DNA of 23,043 nucleotides from a virus (Duplodnaviria; Heunggongvirae; Uroviricota; Caudoviricetes). A model generated the notes under the pieces. It did not search any database, had not been told where the DNA came from, and saw only the letters and a program-made list of their open reading frames with translations. Each line of letters opens with the position of its first letter. The first letter of the stretch is position 1. This document shows positions 1-7,090 of the stretch, piece by piece. The translations under genes and the position numbers were made by a program. Where the stretch lies: positions 1 through 23,043 of IMG/VR virus record IMGVR_UViG_3300045988_132558; one strand, given 5' to 3'.

Positions 1-30
1 AAAATCGTCATCCGATGGCATTCTAAAGCG

Positions 31-519
31 TTACCCCAACCTCAAGTTCTTTAAACGATAAGTCATCGCATCGTCAGATACGCCAAAATAATGCGCCATT
101 ATATAACTTGGTTGGCCGTCAGCGTGCAGTTTTCTGACCTCATCAACCGGCATCAGAAGTTCTGCTGCGAACTTGTTCGCAAAAATTTCATCAGGATGCG
201 TTCCGGCGCTTGCGGTTTCGCCACGTAAATCAACGTACTCATATTCATCACTATGCGATGCTTGCCGGGCGATGTAATGCCCCAACTCATGCCCACATGA
301 AAAACGTTGACGAACTTTGTTGTCATCACTGTTTAGAAAGATCGCTGGATCTTGATCTTTTTGTTTAATCAGTGCGCCAGAAACTTTCCCAGGAAGATCG
401 GTAATAAAAACATCTAATCCCATGTCGTGAGCAATTTTCGCTGGATCAACAGGGAAACCACGCCCGCACCAGAACGTGTCCAGCACTCGCCGGGCGTGCT
501 CTCTTGGGTTGGTAGCCAT
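31..519 (-). CDS. ImmA/IrrE-family zinc metallopeptidase (DUF955-like), 162 aa
   Basis: ORF track 31..519 (-). HEXXH zinc motif (FSCGHELGHY) with a downstream glutamate (ANKFAAELLMP), as in ImmA/IrrE peptidases. GGAGG Shine-Dalgarno 4-5 nt upstream of the ATG. Family assigned by motif recognition only. Confidence 0.7.
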   Translation of the reverse strand: MATNPREHARRVLDTFWCGRGFPVDPAKIAHDMGLDVFITDLPGKVSGALIKQKDQDPAIFLNSDDNKVRQRFSCGHELGHYIARQASHSDEYEYVDLRGETASAGTHPDEIFANKFAAELLMPVDEVRKLHADGQPSYIMAHYFGVSDDAMTYRLKNLRLG

Positions 520-591
520 AGCTCCTCCAGTTACTGCATTACGATTGTTGGTCGAAATATAGACAACATGTTCCGTACCACATTCCTGTAA

Positions 592-610
592 AAGTGCAAA
601 TTCTGCACTT
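592..610. promoter_or_regulatory. Perfect inverted repeat AAGTGCA-N5-TGCACTT (candidate operator) in the divergent intergenic region
   Basis: 7-bp arms are exact reverse complements with a 5-bp spacer (AATTC). Lies about 75 bp upstream of the ImmA-like gene start on the - strand. The repeat is a sequence fact; the regulatory role is inferred. Confidence 0.35.
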
Positions 611-891
611 CTGGTACGATATTAACTGTTAGTAGTAAAGTCTTCCAGATATATCACTTTAAAATCGTGTGAATTGCTTGCTTTTTACGCTGCATTGTGG
701 ATGGCTCAATGTTTCCAGTAAAAACATACATGATAATCATGAGATTAGTGGTTTTTTAGCATGATCTTAAGCCTGGTGCAGAAAATATCCCTTTAACGTA
801 TACCGCATTTTATGTCACACGCCAGAAGCCACACCCCAAGCGGCCTGATAAGAAAGCATCTACTGTTTGAAGGATTTTGAAGCTTTTTCCC

Positions 892-919
892 GTGACAAGA
901 TCCAGTTAACTGTTAGAAT
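892..919 (+). promoter_or_regulatory. Candidate sigma70 promoter for the 996..2158 operon: -35 GTGACA (892-897), 16-bp spacer, -10 TAGAAT (914-919); spacer contains the 10-bp palindrome CAGTTAACTG (903-912)
   Basis: Hexamers read directly from the sequence, each 5/6 match to consensus, about 75 nt upstream of the ATG at 996. No experimental support. Confidence 0.35.
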
Positions 920-995
920 TCTTCGAGCCGAATCGGTGGTTTTAGCCCATTCGTTAAAAATAAAAAGCATAAATATCATAGAGTAAGTTCAAAAC

Positions 996-1763
996 ATGCA
1001 GGCTCAACCTAAGACTAAACACCAAGAATTGGTCGATAAGCTATCATTCTACATAGACACCAAAACGCCTATAGAAGCTTTTGTGGCAGCAGATATTCAG
1101 CATGAGATTGGTTCTTTACCACCAGAATCCCGTTCTTATGTTACTGCTTTGCTTAAGGTTGCACTTAAAGATCATGATGCCGCTGTTGAGTGGTTCAAAG
1201 ACGCCATGATGACTTCTGGTGATAATTCGGCGATAGTTGCTGGTAACTATGTGGGCTACCTGAGCTGCTCTGGTCATAATCTTTTCCATAGAATGGAAGT
1301 GTTCCGCCTGGTTGACGTATTCTGTACGCAACGGATCAGAAAAATGGCGCGGAATGCTGCTTATTGCATCGGTAACGATAGGCTTGTTAAAAAGTATACC
1401 GTTATGATGAAAGCCTTACTTGATGGCGAAGAGCGAGATAGTATTGAACGTGAGGGCGCACAAATGGCAGAAGCTATTGTAAAATTCAAAGAGGCCACAG
1501 AGCTAACCTCATCTGAAATCGAGCAATTATGTGATGCTGCTGAACAGATTGCTAACAACCACGGCGTAAATTGTATCGGCATCGAATACTTCCTCAGTGG
1601 CGGATATGACAATGCAATTATCCTTTTCGCTGAAACTGAAGATTCCGATACACTTACGACGATGAATCTTGAACTAGTTGATCTTCTTGCTCATGATACT
1701 TACATTGACCGGCCTTTTACTTCGTGGTTTAAAAGCGCTGAAATGAAAGGAGCTGAACTATGA
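996..1763 (+). CDS. Hypothetical acidic protein, 255 aa (component A of a two-gene operon)
   Basis: ORF track 996..1763 (+). Stop TGA overlaps the ATG of the next ORF (ATGA at 1760-1763), suggesting translational coupling. No family recognised. Weak Shine-Dalgarno at 996, so the start is uncertain. Confidence 0.5.
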   Translation: MQAQPKTKHQELVDKLSFYIDTKTPIEAFVAADIQHEIGSLPPESRSYVTALLKVALKDHDAAVEWFKDAMMTSGDNSAIVAGNYVGYLSCSGHNLFHRMEVFRLVDVFCTQRIRKMARNAAYCIGNDRLVKKYTVMMKALLDGEERDSIEREGAQMAEAIVKFKEATELTSSEIEQLCDAAEQIANNHGVNCIGIEYFLSGGYDNAIILFAETEDSDTLTTMNLELVDLLAHDTYIDRPFTSWFKSAEMKGAEL

Positions 1764-2158
1764 GCGTAACTGGTCAGAACTTCATTGAGTTTGCAGATAA
1801 ATGCATCGCATTTGGAGATGAAATAGGATTCAGAAACGCGGTGGGACGTTCATACTATGGCGTGTTTCATGAAATCTGCAGCAAGTTAGAGCACTGCTAC
1901 GTACTGACATCTCATGAAGGTGTGCGTAAGTATTTAATGAGTGAAGCTCAGTGTAAGAAAGAGCCTTACGATAAAACAGCCCTGAGAAAGATTGGTGTCC
2001 TTTTACATCATCTGCATGTTCAAAGGAAATGGGCTGATTACACACTTGAGCGTGACTTGACCAAGGCTGACGCCGAATCTGCGATGAAATCCGCAAAGGA
2101 AGCCATGAAGCAAATCAAGACAATGCATGAGACGGTTTATCCGCCTTCCGCTGCATAA
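1760..2158 (+). CDS. Hypothetical protein, 132 aa (component B); weak HEPN-like R-x6-H signature
   Basis: ORF track 1760..2158 (+). AGGAG Shine-Dalgarno about 9 nt upstream of the ATG. Motif RSYYGVFH and a predicted all-helical, Lys-rich C-terminus. The HEPN assignment is tentative. Confidence 0.5.
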   Translation: MSVTGQNFIEFADKCIAFGDEIGFRNAVGRSYYGVFHEICSKLEHCYVLTSHEGVRKYLMSEAQCKKEPYDKTALRKIGVLLHHLHVQRKWADYTLERDLTKADAESAMKSAKEAMKQIKTMHETVYPPSAA

Positions 2159-2174
2159 GTAACATAGTCCTTAG

Positions 2175-2194
2175 CCCCACCCTGGTGGGGTTTT
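2175..2194 (+). terminator. Rho-independent terminator after the two-gene operon
   Basis: GC-rich stem CCCCAC/GTGGGG with a 4-nt loop followed by TTTT, 17 nt after the stop of the 1760..2158 ORF. Confidence 0.55.
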
Positions 2195-2444
2195 ACGCCT
2201 GGCTGCTGAGGCAGGTGTGTTTAAACAAATCCCCGCGAGATGCAGTGGGTCAGTTCTTTTTCCCTTTTCGTCGAGCGCTTCTTTTACCCACTCTTCAAGT
2301 TTCATTTTGCGAGCTCTGGCGCTGTTGTTCCATACTGCTTTTTGAGAGCCGTTACAGGAACGCCTTTTTCTCTCCAGTCATTATCTTTCCCTGGAGTACT
2401 GATAAAGACGACTCCATCAACAAACATTTTATGATGTGATGTAC

Positions 2445-2469
2445 AAAAAGAAAAATCCCGCTATGCGGG
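2445..2469 (-). terminator. Rho-independent terminator oriented for - strand transcription
   Basis: On the - strand: stem CCCGC-ATA-GCGGG followed immediately by ATTTTTCTTTTT. On the + strand the T-run is displaced, so orientation is minus. Confidence 0.45.
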
Positions 2470-2699
2470 GTTAACCTGATTTTTTTTTCGCTTCTTACTT
2501 CTTATCCCACATTCCATGCATTCTTTCTATCTCAGCATCAGTTAAATCATCCAGCCCAACAATTTCAGAGCCGTGACGATAAACGAAAACGCACACACTC
2601 TCCAACGTTAGTCAAAAATAGTCACGCGCCGCGCAGCACCCGCGCTCACTCGATTATTTATAATACCTATGGATTATTTATATATCATATGGGGATATT

Positions 2700-3332
2700 A
2701 TGAATGGTTTTTACGACGACTGGCCTGAAACGTTCGTCACCCGACTGGACATGTTGCGAGTGCTGGATAACAGAGGGGCAACCCGGAGACTCTACACAAA
2801 ACGTACAGGGGCGATTTACAACGCGCTGGCAGACGAGGTTCGTGAGGCTGTGACTGGATTCAATACCAGTGAACTCGACTTAGGACCACTCTACCGGTAT
2901 TACAAATGTGGAGGAGAGGGCGACGCGCTGGCAGACACACTGATCGCACTGGCGCCGACTGTGTGCAGGCGCGTAATGATTTCCCCTGACGTATACACAA
3001 TACCGTACCTGTTTTTTGCGCTGTTGATAGCGCGAGGAGAGGACGACGATGCACGTGATTTTTTCAATATGATGATGCGGCCACTAATCGTGGCGTACCG
3101 GTTCAAACAACTGGCGCGTTACCTGGGAACAAAGGGCGGAGGGAGGCCACAGCACAGGCTAAAAGACGAGGCATTACAGATTGCAGAGGTTTTTTTCACA
3201 AATAACCCCCACGCACGGGTTAGTGCGGCGGTGGCACGTATTAACGAAATTCTCGTAAAAAAATATGCTGACGTTCCGGCGGAATCAACTATTAGAAAAT
3301 GGTTAACCCCTGTTTATGGAAATGAAAAATAA
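2700..3332 (+). CDS. Hypothetical protein, 210 aa
   Basis: ORF track 2700..3332 (+). GGGGA Shine-Dalgarno-like sequence upstream, and a TATAAT hexamer at 2667-2672. No family recognised. Confidence 0.5.
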   Translation: MNGFYDDWPETFVTRLDMLRVLDNRGATRRLYTKRTGAIYNALADEVREAVTGFNTSELDLGPLYRYYKCGGEGDALADTLIALAPTVCRRVMISPDVYTIPYLFFALLIARGEDDDARDFFNMMMRPLIVAYRFKQLARYLGTKGGGRPQHRLKDEALQIAEVFFTNNPHARVSAAVARINEILVKKYADVPAESTIRKWLTPVYGNEK

Positions 3333-3374
3333 TAACCATAAACCGTTTTTTCCGGGAATAAACCGTTTAATCAA

Positions 3375-3389
3375 ATTCACGAGGTGAAT
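3375..3389. promoter_or_regulatory. Inverted repeat ATTCAC-GAG-GTGAAT (candidate operator)
   Basis: Exact 6-bp arms with a 3-bp spacer, about 90 bp upstream of the small ORF at 3482, next to a TTGACG hexamer at 3418-3423. Confidence 0.25.
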
Positions 3390-3481
3390 GTAATTGTTCA
3401 TTATCCCCCCATTGTATTTGACGTTATGACAAATGGTCACGAATACTGTATAAATATACAGGATTTCTGTCAGGGGGAAAT

Positions 3482-3661
3482 ATGAACACACACAAGGCAA
3501 TCAGCAAATTACCGGATACGTGCCGGGCTGTAATCAAACGAGAAGAAGGGCGCGTAGTGAGTGTGCGCGTTCTCAGCAACGACGAGCGGATTGCCAGCCT
3601 GATGGCGTTTCTCGAGTTGGCAGAAATAGCTGGATATACTATTACACCCCCTGAAGCGTAA
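3482..3661 (+). CDS. Small hypothetical protein, 59 aa (below the ORF-track cutoff)
   Basis: Found by manual translation: ATG at 3482 preceded by GGGGGA about 5 nt upstream, open for 59 codons to TAA at 3659-3661 (MNTHKAISKLPDTCRAVIKREEGRVVSVRVLSNDERIASLMAFLELAEIAGYTITPPEA). Confidence 0.35.
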   Translation: MNTHKAISKLPDTCRAVIKREEGRVVSVRVLSNDERIASLMAFLELAEIAGYTITPPEA

Positions 3662-3737
3662 AACACGGTATAATACTGGTGCTGGATTGAACACCCGGCA
3701 CCACTTCTGAACACTGCCGCGCCACCTGGAGTTAACC

Positions 3738-4334
3738 ATGGCGCAGCATTCATTTATCAGGGTATCCGGCGGTTCGCTAATACCCGCGACACCAGACACG
3801 CAACGCTGGTTGACTGAACGAGTCAAACCAGGTGCTGTTGTGTATGCAGATTTCAAACAGGCGCGTAATCCCGCGTTTCATCGTAAATTTTTCTCACTTC
3901 TCAACCTGGGCTTTGATTACTGGCATCCCTCCGGAGGGGCTATTTCTCCTGCGGAGCGCGAACTGGTTCACGGATACGTTAAGTTACTGGCGTATTACGG
4001 TGGGCATGGTGATGTCATGGCTGAGCTGGCTGATCAGTATCTTCTCGATGAGTCGGAAAAGCGCGCGGGGAATATCAGTGCGGTGAAGTCGTTCGAGGCG
4101 TTTCGCGCCTGGGCGACTATGGAAGCTGGATTTTATGACGTTCATCAGATGCCAGATGGTAGTTTGATGCGTGTACCTCGTTCAATTTCGTTTGCAGCGA
4201 TGGACGATCTTGAGTTCGGTCAACTGTATTCAGCCGTTTTAGATGTGCTGTGGAATTATATTTTGTTCCGCACGTTTGCCTCTCAGGAGGCCGCTGAAAA
4301 TGCTGCCGCGCAGCTGCTGGATTACACATCATGA
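3738..4334 (+). CDS. Phage nin-region protein, DUF1367-like (about 200 aa)
   Basis: ORF track 3738..4334 (+). Size and position directly upstream of a YbcO-like gene match a pairing I recall from enterobacterial lambdoid prophages. Stop overlaps the next start (ATGA at 4331-4334). Family name from memory only. Confidence 0.45.
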   Translation: MAQHSFIRVSGGSLIPATPDTQRWLTERVKPGAVVYADFKQARNPAFHRKFFSLLNLGFDYWHPSGGAISPAERELVHGYVKLLAYYGGHGDVMAELADQYLLDESEKRAGNISAVKSFEAFRAWATMEAGFYDVHQMPDGSLMRVPRSISFAAMDDLEFGQLYSAVLDVLWNYILFRTFASQEAAENAAAQLLDYTS

Positions 4335-4624
4335 AGAAAATCGACCTGAGAAAAGCTGCACGCGGTCGCGCTTGTACTGTGCGTATCCCCGGTGTGTGCA
4401 ATCACAATCCTGAAACCAGCGTTCTGGCTCATTATCGTCTCGCCGGAACGTGCGGCACAGCCATCAAACCTCACGATATGCAGGGCGCTATCGCCTGCAG
4501 TGCGTGTCACGATGCTATCGACGGACGTACAAAAACGGATTACGAGTACGACTCATTGTTGTTGATGCACGCTGAGGGTGTTCTCAGGACGCTGGCCATC
4601 TGGCGCGATGAGGGGGTTATCTGA
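4331..4624 (+). CDS. DUF1364-family protein, YbcO-like (nin-region putative nuclease), 97 aa
   Basis: LRKAARGRACTVRIPGVCNHNPETSVLAHYRL...IACSACHDAIDGRT closely resembles my recollection of E. coli DLP12 YbcO, including the conserved Cys cluster. Overlaps both flanking genes by ATGA. Confidence 0.6.
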   Translation: MKKIDLRKAARGRACTVRIPGVCNHNPETSVLAHYRLAGTCGTAIKPHDMQGAIACSACHDAIDGRTKTDYEYDSLLLMHAEGVLRTLAIWRDEGVI

Positions 4625-5295
4625 TGAGCAACGAATATTTGCTGGAGTTCACCCGAATTAAGTTGCGGAGCGTGCTACTGGATTTATCCGGGGGAACGAA
4701 AGGGCAACTGGAAGCGCTGAGCGAGCACCCACCGGCAGACAAAAACTTTTACCAGCGCAAAAACATTCACCGCGTGGAGCTGGAAGATCGTATGGTTGAC
4801 GCGTTGGTAACACCCGTTTACGCGCTGGAGACGTTCGGTAGGCGTCGCCCGGCACCGCCGATTAATGATTTTGAATTTGCTGATTCACCGTGGCGCCGCG
4901 CCGTGAACTCGCTCGACGTTAGCCAGCAGGCGTGGTTGCGCTATTGCTACGGTGGTGACCTTGCGTTCAAGCACCAAACAGCCATTTGTGAGGCTGTCTG
5001 GAATCGCTATAAAGCAAACATCCCCGCGTCAACTCAGAGAAAAGTAGTCAAGCGCCTGCTTTCGCTGGTGTGGTTGTCCGTGCAGGCGGTCGCAGCAGCA
5101 AATAAACGCGAGGACTTTAAGGAGATGGCTGGATCTGCGCTAGCTGGAATGTTGTCTGTTTCTCGTTCCACCTGGTGCGAAACATACTCCCCGCACTGGG
5201 AAGGAATGAAAGAGGCGGTGAGAGCACTTGATGAAGTGGCACTTTTTGCAACTTTGCATCATTATCAGAACCATTTAGACGACGTTTGCGTATAA
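4624..5295 (+). CDS. Putative late-gene antiterminator (Q-like) by position, 223 aa
   Basis: Last gene before the lysis cassette and directly upstream of a promoter-like element and intrinsic terminator (5291-5390), as for lambdoid Q-PR'-tR'. No confident sequence match, and no Cys4 zinc finger of the lambda Q type. Confidence 0.4.
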   Translation: MSNEYLLEFTRIKLRSVLLDLSGGTKGQLEALSEHPPADKNFYQRKNIHRVELEDRMVDALVTPVYALETFGRRRPAPPINDFEFADSPWRRAVNSLDVSQQAWLRYCYGGDLAFKHQTAICEAVWNRYKANIPASTQRKVVKRLLSLVWLSVQAVAAANKREDFKEMAGSALAGMLSVSRSTWCETYSPHWEGMKEAVRALDEVALFATLHHYQNHLDDVCV

Positions 5296-5345
5296 TGCTT
5301 GCAAAACCGAACAAAATAGGCCATATTTAACGCTAATTTGGTATG
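5291..5345 (+). promoter_or_regulatory. Candidate late promoter region (PR'/qut analogue)
   Basis: Perfect TATAAT hexamer at 5291-5296 overlapping the stop codon of the upstream gene; TTGCAA at 5299-5304. A convincing -35/-10 pair could not be settled by eye. Confidence 0.3.
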
Positions 5346-5363
5346 TTGCCAAATTTCTAAGAA

Positions 5364-5390
5364 CCTCGCCACGGCGGGGTTTTGTCGTTT
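5364..5390 (+). terminator. Rho-independent terminator (tR'-like) between the putative Q gene and the lysis genes
   Basis: Stem CCTCGC/GCGGGG (one G-U pair) with a 4-nt loop, followed by TTTTGTCGTTT. Confidence 0.5.
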
Positions 5391-5407
5391 CTGAATCAGG
5401 AAAAATC

Positions 5408-5791
5408 ATGTCTGAACCTCTAACCGCTGGCGTTGCTGCTGGCTCGGCGGGGGTGACGTTTGCTGCGTTATTTCCTGAGGCAACACCTGCAGTGATGATC
5501 TGTGCGCTGGCAGGCGCAGCTCTCTATGTGTTGTCGTCCGGGCAGCATCGATTCTGGAAGCAGGTTATTTTCGCACTCATTTCGTTTGTTGGCGGTGTGT
5601 ATTGCGCTGAGACAGCATCAGCCATCATTACCGGTATTCTGAACGCGGTGCTGAGTCACCTGAACCCTCCCGTAACAGTAAAAGTCTCTCCCGCCATTGG
5701 TGCACTGGTTGCATCAGTAATCAGCGTTACATCACTGTTGCGAATCATGTCACAAGCTCGTTTATGGAAATCAGATAAGGGGATGAAATAA
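5408..5791 (+). CDS. Putative holin (multi-pass membrane protein), 127 aa
   Basis: ORF track 5408..5791 (+). Several hydrophobic segments and a charged C-terminus (KSDKGMK). First gene after the late terminator, upstream of the endolysin. Confidence 0.45.
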   Translation: MSEPLTAGVAAGSAGVTFAALFPEATPAVMICALAGAALYVLSSGQHRFWKQVIFALISFVGGVYCAETASAIITGILNAVLSHLNPPVTVKVSPAIGALVASVISVTSLLRIMSQARLWKSDKGMK

Positions 5792-6075
5792 TGACCCTGC
5801 ACTCTGTTCTCATCAATGCCAATGCAATTATCTGTCTGATGCTGGCATTGCGGTTAATGTTTTTTCAAAAAACAGGCCGCTATCGTTTTTTCATCTCACT
5901 AACTGCTTACCTGGCGATTCTGTCTGCTGCGTGGATAGCCCTACGAATTTTTTACGGGAAATATACGCAGGTTGATCCCGCAGAGTTCTTTCTCAACCTC
6001 ACCATCTGTATTGCTGTCTGGCGGGCACGAGGAAATATTTCAAAAATAACAGGAGACAGGTATGACCGATCCTAA
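5791..6075 (+). CDS. Small membrane protein (second holin or antiholin candidate), 94 aa
   Basis: ORF track 5791..6075 (+). Two or three hydrophobic helices; start overlaps the previous stop (ATGA at 5788-5791); within the lysis cassette. Confidence 0.35.
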   Translation: MTLHSVLINANAIICLMLALRLMFFQKTGRYRFFISLTAYLAILSAAWIALRIFYGKYTQVDPAEFFLNLTICIAVWRARGNISKITGDRYDRS

Positions 6076-6541
6076 ATGGCTAATTGAGGCACGAAAAAAT
6101 CTCGGCATTCGGGAAATGAAAGGGAAGCAACATGCTGCAGAAATTGTGCAGTACTGGAAAGATATCAAACGCGGCGGCATTAAGGATGATGAAACCCCGT
6201 GGTGCGCTGCCTTCACCGGAGCAATGCTGGAACGTGTAGGTATTCGCTCAACGCGTTTTGAGTCTGCGAATTCTTATCTCGATTGGGGTAATGAACTGAA
6301 GGAACCCGCCTATGGATGCATTGCTATTCTGTCTCGGTCTGGCGGCGGTCACGTTGGCTTTGTTGTCGGGAAAAATGCCGCCAGGGATTTAATGATTTTG
6401 GGTGGCAACCAAGCAGACGCAGTGAATATCAAAGCGTTTCCGAGCTCACGCGTTACCGGCTATCGCTGGCCAGCAGGTCAAACGGATGTTCCACAATCAC
6501 TTCCATTGGTGAATGCTGAGAAATCTATCTCAGAAGCGTAG
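6062..6541 (+). CDS. Endolysin candidate, Cys/His peptidase type (CHAP/NlpC-P60-like; TIGR02594-like), 159 aa
   Basis: ORF track 6062..6541 (+). AGGAGA Shine-Dalgarno upstream. Candidate catalytic Cys (PWCAAF) and His (GGGHVGFVVG) in the spacing typical of cysteine peptidase endolysins. Family from motif and position. Confidence 0.5.
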   Translation: MTDPKWLIEARKNLGIREMKGKQHAAEIVQYWKDIKRGGIKDDETPWCAAFTGAMLERVGIRSTRFESANSYLDWGNELKEPAYGCIAILSRSGGGHVGFVVGKNAARDLMILGGNQADAVNIKAFPSSRVTGYRWPAGQTDVPQSLPLVNAEKSISEA

Positions 6542-6548
6542 GTAAAAC

Positions 6549-6740
6549 GTGAAAAAACTTCTCTTAGCTGTCGCGTTCTTCACTATGGCAGGCTGTACAC
6601 ATTCGACATACACCGAAGCGACTCGCGCTGACGGCAGCAGCATTAAACACGTGATGATCGCGCCGGGTACGAAAATTACCACTGCGGACGGTGGTTGTAT
6701 TGATTCAACTGGTGTCGTAACGGCTTGCCAGTCAAAGTGA
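6549..6740 (+). CDS. Small lysis-associated lipoprotein (o-spanin/Rz1-like candidate), 63 aa, GTG start
   Basis: ORF track 6549..6740 (+). Signal peptide with lipobox (LLLAVAFFTMAGC) and a second Cys pair in the mature part. No separate i-spanin (Rz-like) ORF seen. Confidence 0.45.
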   Translation: MKKLLLAVAFFTMAGCTHSTYTEATRADGSSIKHVMIAPGTKITTADGGCIDSTGVVTACQSK

Positions 6741-6841
6741 TTGTAACTTGCTGTTTTCGATATTAAGTACCTTGAATTAGGTTTACGAGTTGGCATTATA
6801 GAAAAACTATATGGTTCACTAATGTGACATAAGGAAATATT

Positions 6842-7090
6842 ATGCCTAAGTTAAAACTTGTTAAGACATTGCTATTGCCAGGTAATAATAAGTATGAGAT
6901 TTATGCAAGAAATGAATATAGCAACGTAGAACAAATTATTCACTATAAACTGCGCTCTTGTAAGAACGAGCAAGGCCAGGATGGAATGTCTGAGGCGCAA
7001 TGGGTTATTTATAATCCATTGTTTCCATTACCAGATGACCGCAATTATGCAAGTGTATCAAATATAGACGACTATCTGGTCGATTGCTAA
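6842..7090 (+). CDS. Hypothetical protein, 82 aa (moron)
   Basis: ORF track 6842..7090 (+). AAGGAA Shine-Dalgarno upstream, AT-rich promoter-like region 6770-6800, strong terminator just downstream (7101-7121). Confidence 0.45.
   Translation: MPKLKLVKTLLLPGNNKYEIYARNEYSNVEQIIHYKLRSCKNEQGQDGMSEAQWVIYNPLFPLPDDRNYASVSNIDDYLVDC

Follow-up and report, generated by a model that had tools for sequence, protein, structure and literature searches.

Two independent two-gene modules, an ImmA peptidase operon and an overlapping HEPN-TPR gene pair, meet at a recombination junction in a Gifsy/lambda-like Escherichia coli prophage

An ImmA/IrrE-type zinc peptidase gene lying back to back with an overlapping two-gene operon raises the question of whether the three genes form one accessory system under the control of the peptidase or are neighbours by accident of recombination. 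The arrangement occurs at one end of the Caudoviricetes record IMGVR_UViG_3300045988_132558, which was analyzed over positions 1 to 23,043 (hereafter the window, 23,043 nt in length). A previous sequence-only reading had grouped the peptidase (162 aa) and the two divergent genes (255 and 132 aa) into a single candidate defense or toxin-antitoxin-like module. The open reading frame (ORF) map places all three ORFs as that reading had described them, at 31-519 on the minus strand and at 996-1763 and 1760-2158 on the plus strand, and the ATGA start/stop overlap claimed for the latter two can be read directly in the sequence at 1760-1763, with a strong AAGGAG Shine-Dalgarno sequence 8 nt 5' of the start of the 132-aa gene. 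The block is also richer in AT than the structural genes, as had been noted, with a GC content of 0.39-0.45 across 501-2500 vs. 0.50-0.60. The grouping itself does not survive: the locus consists of two independent two-gene modules that meet at a recombination junction (759/760), in a variable accessory/defense region of a Gifsy/lambda-like E. coli prophage.

A megablast search of window positions 1-2700 against 5,426 complete E. coli genomes returned the segment 1-759 in 434 of them, at 95-99.6% identity, and all 434 matches stop at 758/759, that is, after the ImmA gene and the 240 bp upstream of it. The adjoining segment, 760-2696, occurs in none of these 434 genomes, positions 760-2700 are unmatched in all 5,426, and a sensitive blastn search of the same 5,426 genomes with positions 886-2196, which hold the pair, likewise detected no copy. 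Alignment with the sister prophage GF131 (L001) by blastn delimits the variable segment on both sides: positions 1-759 align at 99.6% and positions 2697-6712 at 89.6% identity, with nothing between, and where the window has the variable segment (760-2696), GF131 has 720 bp of unrelated sequence that includes a 79-aa gene. Still other small genes occupy the slot of the pair in the sister prophages GF43 and SA186. The non-coding DNA at 520-759, which ends at the mosaic junction, travels with ImmA. The exact 255-aa and 132-aa proteins were found on ~100 E. coli draft contigs, each time in the window's own prophage. The tblastn searches with the pair and with ImmA covered 31 loci, including 15 further IMG/VR loci, and no ImmA homologue was found within 5-8 kb of the diverged copies of the pair (22 loci, ~15 distinct). 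Variable presence at one position in related prophages, which the sequence-only reading had raised for the whole block, holds for the pair and fails for ImmA and its membrane-protein neighbour, which belong to the conserved backbone of the lineage.

The peptidase has a partner of its own. The minus-strand ORF that the sequence-only reading had seen to begin at nt 21, and of which only the first seven codons (MPSDDDF, 1-21) lie in the window, is a real and conserved gene, complete in the identical prophages (L003-L009; L003 coordinates 6421-7026) and in GF131. Lying second in the ImmA operon, it encodes a 201-aa membrane protein that belongs to phrog_5346 (function unknown), has no Pfam domains and presents a transmembrane segment at residues 144-162 in Kyte-Doolittle analysis. 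A homologue of this protein (132-204 aa) comes next after ImmA in 11 of 11 IMG/VR loci (L038-L048), with ImmA identities of 77-100% and in differing phage contexts (after lysis genes, or beside methylase, tail or ORF6N genes). The first ~30 residues of these homologues, forming an N-terminal helix, and the last ~95, containing the transmembrane segment, are conserved, and the low-complexity linker between them varies in length. Within the E. coli lineage, a variable slot flanks the conserved ImmA and membrane-protein operon on either side. The guess that a partner of the peptidase might lie beyond the window was thus right about its existence and wrong about its nature, the partner being a membrane protein and not a helix-turn-helix (HTH) repressor. 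The reported lack of an HTH ORF in the intergenic region was borne out, with none present in 520-995, and since the next gene is the membrane-protein gene in 11 of 11 loci, no HTH repressor gene adjoins ImmA.

The assignment of the 162-aa protein to the ImmA/IrrE (M78) zinc metallopeptidases is firm: it matches PF06114 with an E-value of 7.7e-18 (64.9 bits vs. a cut-off of 22), presents the predicted HEXXH as H77-E78-L-G-H81, belongs to phrog_87 (metallo-protease) and matches the PADLOC capP profile at E=2.4e-25 over profile positions 3-151 of 242. It shares this M78/IrrE-type HEXXH domain with the ImmA/ImmR and CapP/CapH systems, but differs from both in being peptidase-only, in lacking an adjoining HTH substrate gene and in having an invariant membrane-protein neighbour. 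Given the mosaic junction, the separate distributions and ImmA's own partner, the peptidase is neither part of the operon of the pair nor its gatekeeper, and the single three-gene module is contradicted on all three counts. Whatever its substrate, ImmA stands outside the HEPN cassette; instead of the pair, its target is most likely its own partner or a repressor encoded elsewhere.

A repressor elsewhere is available in the prophage lineage, ~10 kb from ImmA. GF131, GF43 and SA186 carry the same 130-aa XRE-type repressor, an HTH-only protein (HTH_3, residues 7-58) devoid of S24, in a background that retains ImmA and the 201-aa gene, and the family phrog_2439 is a fusion that aligns with the repressor at its N-terminal end and with ImmA in its middle. 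These observations suggest that ImmA might be the protease of prophage induction, with the 130-aa repressor as its target in trans (the ImmA/ImmR logic) and the membrane protein as a passenger. We regard this as possible, if doubtful: the two genes are not adjacent, ImmA travels with the membrane-protein gene into other phage contexts, and the three prophages belong to one lineage, so that their co-occurrence is uninformative. The lineage also offers an alternative, SOS-antirepressor route to induction. A perfect LexA/SOS box, TACTGTATAAATATACAG, lies at 3444-3461, ~20 nt 5' of the ribosome-binding site of a 59-aa ORF (3482-3661, plus strand; phrog_340, unknown) located just before ninB. The box upstream of it and the absence of an S24 cleavage domain in the repressor of the sister prophages make the 59-aa gene a candidate SOS-controlled antirepressor, and the SOS-controlled antirepressor logic of Gifsy and of 186 Tum provides the comparison. 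As a separate observation, sites of the form CTGT-N8-ACAG (at most one mismatch) number 14 in the whole window vs. 6.7 ± 2.7 expected, a count reached in none of 100 shuffles, and only the site at 3446 is perfect.

The overlapping pair behaves as a mobile unit. It was found in ~26 other loci across the Gammaproteobacteria, never together with ImmA and, apart from one distant Erwinia copy, in accessory slots of prophages; 255-aa homologues occur in many Enterobacterales, and in the 22 loci holding diverged copies a homologue of the 132-aa protein lies directly 3' of every 255-aa homologue (42-73% identity). The partner gene comes first in all other loci, with an overlap or a gap of at most ~25 nt to the HEPN gene, and the sequence identity of the one protein tracks that of the other from locus to locus (r=0.93, n=15). 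The surroundings change from host to host. In Enterobacter sp. 638 the pair sits between antiterminator Q and the lysis genes, adjoining HicAB; in Serratia it is located after Q; in Pectobacterium and an Enterobacteriaceae strain it follows the tail fibre genes, at the prophage end; and one further copy adjoins an integrase. Homology also extends to the DNA, with ~71% identity to the Enterobacter (L010/L011) and Pectobacterium (L016) copies starting at 886-888 and ending at 2118 (Enterobacter) or 2196 (Pectobacterium). The conserved stretch takes in the promoter and, for Pectobacterium, also the hairpin, and delimits the mobile cassette proper (886-2196, plus strand), which comprises promoter, TPR-protein gene, HEPN gene and terminal hairpin.

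Both the promoter and the terminator that the sequence-only reading had assigned to the pair can be recognized. The sigma-70-type promoter-like site at 892-919 (plus strand) consists of GTGACA-16-TAGAAT with an extended-10 TG and matches the consensus at 10 of 12 positions. When the upstream regions of 18 homologous cassettes are aligned, 16 of them share GTGACA and TGnTAnAAT. The perfect palindrome CAGTTAACTG reported in its spacer is present at 902-911. Among the aligned upstream regions it is confined to the window and to the Pectobacterium locus, and its interpretation as a conserved operator was rejected on these grounds. The cassette ends in a terminator-like hairpin at 2173-2194 (plus strand), AGCCCCAC-CCUG-GUGGGGUU followed by UU, with its stem at 2173-2180/2185-2192 and CCUG as the loop. 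The hairpin is real and its T run short; with only four T behind it, it was not listed by the consensus scan.

Pairing extends to the limits of the family. An exhaustive hidden Markov model search of 1.84 billion representatives identified ~80 full-length relatives of the 255-aa protein (250-265 aa), down to ~18% identity and annotated as 'hypothetical' or 'TPR protein', whose named members all belong to the Gammaproteobacteria (Serratia, Pantoea, Citrobacter, Hafnia, Proteus, Yersinia, Moraxellaceae and Pseudaeromonas). Distant HEPN-like genes of Erwinia and Citrobacter have overlapping TPR-family members of 261 and 256 aa just upstream, and distant TPR members of Proteus and Serratia have overlapping HEPN-like genes just downstream. 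The TPR protein is only ~20-27% identical in these four pairs, yet the overlap is kept, from which it follows that pairing is universal across the family. PHROG places the pair proteins in phrog_17809 and phrog_5176, both of unknown function, and no homologues of the pair were found in GenBank phages, PLSDB plasmids or complete E. coli genomes.

The stretch between the replication genes and ninB is a defense hotspot. PD-T7-5 is a single-gene, validated defense system, and a 339-aa homologue of it (PADLOC E=1.8e-102) is encoded just left of the ImmA operon, at 5156-6175 of L003, corresponding to ~1.8 kb left of the window start in an identical prophage. In sister prophages the place of this gene is taken by PDC-M25A/B (GF131), PDC-S31/DUF2971 (L005), a GIY-YIG nuclease (GF43) or a 232-aa protein of unknown function (SA186). 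In the PADLOC scan of the extended locus, the pair matched no system, and the adjoining genes matched PD-T7-5, PDC-M25A/B and PDC-S31. The proposal of an accessory module of defense or toxin-antitoxin type can accordingly be retained for the 255/132-aa pair, which is variable, encodes a HEPN fold and has PD-T7-5 nearby, and is abandoned for ImmA.

The HEPN assignment of the 132-aa protein is based on its predicted structure and on profile comparisons. The model (pLDDT, the predicted local distance difference test, of 87) presents the four-helix up-and-down HEPN fold, and the Joint Genome Institute label of the exact protein is UPF0332. As a single sequence the protein has no PF05168 match at E<=1; a search of 5.8 billion sequences with the family profile retrieves a PF05168 protein at E=4.4e-4, and hhalign aligns the family to that relative, P0177, with a probability of 95.9% (E=5e-9, 33% identity over 94 columns). 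On its own contigs, P0177 has an overlapping PF01909 MNT gene just upstream, in a canonical MNT-HEPN pair. The family profile also matches the PDB HEPN chains 9xbd/9xbc at E=0.03-0.1. In an alignment of 21 sequences that includes P0177 and extends to ~28% identity, R25, R30, Y32, Y33, G34, H52, R89, D93 and Y94 are invariant. The classical Rx4-6H endoribonuclease motif of the helix 3/4 junction is absent: in its place stands R89-K-W-A-D-Y94, an R-x4-Y in which the Arg is invariant and the His has given way to an invariant Tyr. H52 lies between the helices at 21-42 and 72-94 of the model, in the insert of helices 2 and 3. Loss of the motif His, retention of the motif Arg and a second conserved His in the helix 2/3 insert, proposed as an alternative active site, are the features described for the AF0298-type HEPN-T clade (PMC3710099), and all three are found in the 132-aa protein. 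The recently deposited 9xbd/9xbc chains, entered as 'HEPN domain-containing protein', differ from each other by a Tyr to Phe change at the position of Y94 (sDYdL vs. sDFdL), which suggests that their depositors consider the Tyr functionally important; a literature search returned no paper on these PDB entries.

The 255-aa partner is a helical-repeat protein. Its model (pLDDT 88) combines a TPR-like solenoid of helix-turn-helix repeats (helices ~8-168) with a small alpha-beta-beta-alpha-beta domain (172-247). A 50-sequence alignment of the family contains no invariant column and no conserved GS or DxD-type residues, and the absence of invariant columns indicates that the protein is not an enzyme. 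For the C-terminal domain, a PDB profile search and per-member Pfam scans revealed no sequence relative in Pfam or PDB, with RsfS appearing only at E~1 and nothing consistent. A reading of this domain as a degenerate MNT, considered for its topology and for strings such as 'FLSGG...DNAIIL', went unsupported, with an hhalign probability to MNT of 0.5%. The protein has no PF01909 match, and the slot of the MNT antitoxin is occupied without an MNT in all loci examined. With no PF01909 domain, no alignment to MNT and no conserved GS or DxD residues, neutralization of the AMPylation type is unlikely.

The reading that we favour, and hold to be somewhat more probable than not, is that of a self-promoted mobile prophage cassette in which a HEPN ribonuclease (RNase) toxin is held by a TPR neutralizer, with an abortive-infection-like or prophage addiction role, and in which ImmA and the membrane protein form a separate operon. 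Under this model, the 132-aa protein would be a dimeric, metal-independent RNase using R89 and the alternative His52, with Tyr94 instead of the classical His. The 255-aa protein, taking the MNT antitoxin slot and being made first in a coupled operon, would keep the HEPN protein inactive by binding, not by AMPylation. Were the TPR protein lost or titrated, or its surface occupied by a phage product, the RNase would be freed and translation would stop, with abortive infection or prophage addiction as the outcome. The TPR surface could plausibly receive such a phage product or be where regulated loss takes place. A bolder version, to which we give tentative credence well short of an even chance, is that the pair constitutes a new two-gene abortive-infection system, with the TPR protein replacing MNT as keeper of an AF0298-type HEPN RNase and serving also as its sensor, so that a phage protein or peptide in the TPR groove would free the Arg89/His52 RNase; separately, the ImmA and membrane-protein operon would be a possible novel protease-gated membrane effector.

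The layout is that of an MNT-HEPN toxin-antitoxin pair whose adenylyltransferase has given way to a repeat protein without enzymatic features. As in the type VII HEPN-MNT (HepT/MntA) systems, a small HEPN protein comes second behind an overlapping upstream partner gene, the nearest Pfam-recognized relative of the 132-aa protein is itself MNT-paired, and a conserved Tyr is found just after the motif Arg. The pair differs in that its partner is a TPR plus alpha/beta protein and not a nucleotidyltransferase, and in its motif, R-x4-Y vs. R-x4-H-x-Y. The AF0298/UPF0332 HEPN-T clade (PDB 2hsb), canonical members of which serve as toxins in MNT-HEPN pairs, has been described as MNT-associated (PMC3710099), whereas the sub-family of the pair is TPR-coupled, restricted to Gammaproteobacteria and mostly prophage-borne. 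HEPN effectors with a helical-repeat partner recur in predicted conflict systems, with the LA2681 family and AbiU2 found in operons with TPR or Sel1 repeat proteins, the latter with a Sel1-repeat gene (PMC3710099, Table 1); these are other HEPN families that keep Rx4-6H, and no sequence link to the pair was found. A precedent for the proposed biology is HepS of the Gifsy-1 prophage (PDB 9oik), a single 218-aa HEPN abortive-infection protein that senses its trigger itself, is activated by phage tail-tip proteins and acts as a tetrameric anticodon nuclease (PMC13043305). In contrast, the HEPN protein of the pair is of 132 aa, always has a separate TPR partner and shows no detectable sequence relationship to HepS. 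Identity with the DefensePredictor system DS-28 (HEPN nuclease and hypothetical protein) was considered and rejected: the two systems have unrelated sequences and opposite gene orders, and the window peptides are not in the supplements searched.

Several observations weigh against a HEPN toxin held by a TPR neutralizer. The classical motif His is absent, so catalysis would depend on an alternative site that is itself only proposed. The distant Erwinia copy lies among metabolic genes, with no recognizable prophage or defense island. In a few E. coli assemblies the TPR gene is split in two ORFs (P0180 and P0182, P0184 and P0185; in one example 161 and 99 aa on one 48-kb contig), a state not expected of an essential antitoxin, barring a sequencing error or a co-inactivated toxin. 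In single-sequence scans neither protein has a Pfam, NCBIfam or PADLOC assignment, as the sequence-only reading had anticipated in placing them in no family, and the only PADLOC match is a chance-level hit of the 255-aa protein to DndA (E=0.021). Lastly, classical type II autoregulation is not evident, since a DNA-binding domain is missing from the TPR protein and the palindrome in the promoter lacks conservation.

The missing His, the split TPR genes, the Erwinia neighbourhood and the lack of a PADLOC match would also be accommodated by a HEPN protein that is a non-catalytic RNA or nucleotide binder, as proposed for MtlR and the human sacsin HEPN, with a regulatory or lysogenic-conversion role together with its TPR partner; non-catalytic HEPN domains have indeed been noted (PMC3710099). 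We consider this unlikely. R89, H52, D93 and Y94 are invariant down to ~28% identity and are common to the MNT-paired, toxin-type HEPN, which argues for a conserved active or regulated site, and HEPN proteins that lack the classical motif and are associated with MNT are reported to be toxic still in genome-scale screens (PMC3710099). The moron-like mobility of the pair, its tight coupling and its HicAB and PD-T7-5 neighbourhoods point in the same direction.

To about the same low degree, we give weight to a plain addiction module that stabilizes the prophage through a labile TPR antitoxin and has no anti-phage role. The architecture is that of MNT-HEPN toxin-antitoxin systems, with the partner first and the genes overlapping, and the cassette adjoins another toxin-antitoxin system, HicAB, in Enterobacter and is found at prophage ends. 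Addiction and defense are not separable from sequence alone, but the TPR solenoid, at 255 aa, is of unusual size for a simple antitoxin and has the character of a ligand binder, and known or candidate defense genes fill the slot in sister prophages.

A shared repeat between the two modules was also examined. An exact 11-nt direct repeat, TTAACTGTTAG, occurs at 622-632, upstream of ImmA, and at 906-916, in the promoter of the pair. The 906 copy recurs as GTTAACTGTTAGAAT in the cassettes of Enterobacter (L010) and Pectobacterium (L016) and in that of L020, all of which lack ImmA; it is therefore native to ImmA-less cassettes and predates the juxtaposition, the repeat looks coincidental, and its candidacy as a shared operator of ImmA and the pair was rejected. 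A single three-gene system, with the divergent operon under the control of the peptidase through, for example, cleavage of a regulator or of the 255-aa protein, is very improbable despite the adjacent, divergent genes in the window and all identical prophages and the precedent of ImmA-type peptidases gating CapH/CapP defense operons (capP being the best PADLOC match), given the junction between ImmA and the pair, ImmA without the pair in 434 genomes and the pair without ImmA in 22 loci, the peptidase's invariant partner and the lack of an HTH substrate gene. For annotation, the locus illustrates that divergent neighbours in prophage accessory regions may be a recombination accident, and that non-HTH partners are possible for ImmA-type peptidases.

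The pair is absent from PADLOC, GenBank phages, PLSDB, complete E. coli genomes and the searchable defense literature, and no characterization of it was found in publications on UPF0332, PDB 9xbd or HEPN and TPR defense systems; the pairing of HEPN with helical-repeat proteins has already been noted computationally for other HEPN families. Partner swapping in toxin-antitoxin systems is well known. If the TPR-held HEPN toxin is correct, the pair would be a new candidate defense or toxin-antitoxin system that is compact (1.3 kb), self-promoted and easily cloned, from a hotspot already holding PD-T7-5. It would also provide an example of partner swap in which a toxin clade usually controlled by AMPylation has come under a binding-only repeat protein, and a genetic handle on the alternative active site predicted in 2013 for AF0298-type HEPN domains.

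Immediately to the right of the variable slot, a gene at 2700-3332 (plus strand) encodes a 210-aa protein of phrog_5215 (unknown) with a weak HTH_32 match (E=0.15). This gene belongs to the conserved backbone, with ~89% DNA identity to GF131.

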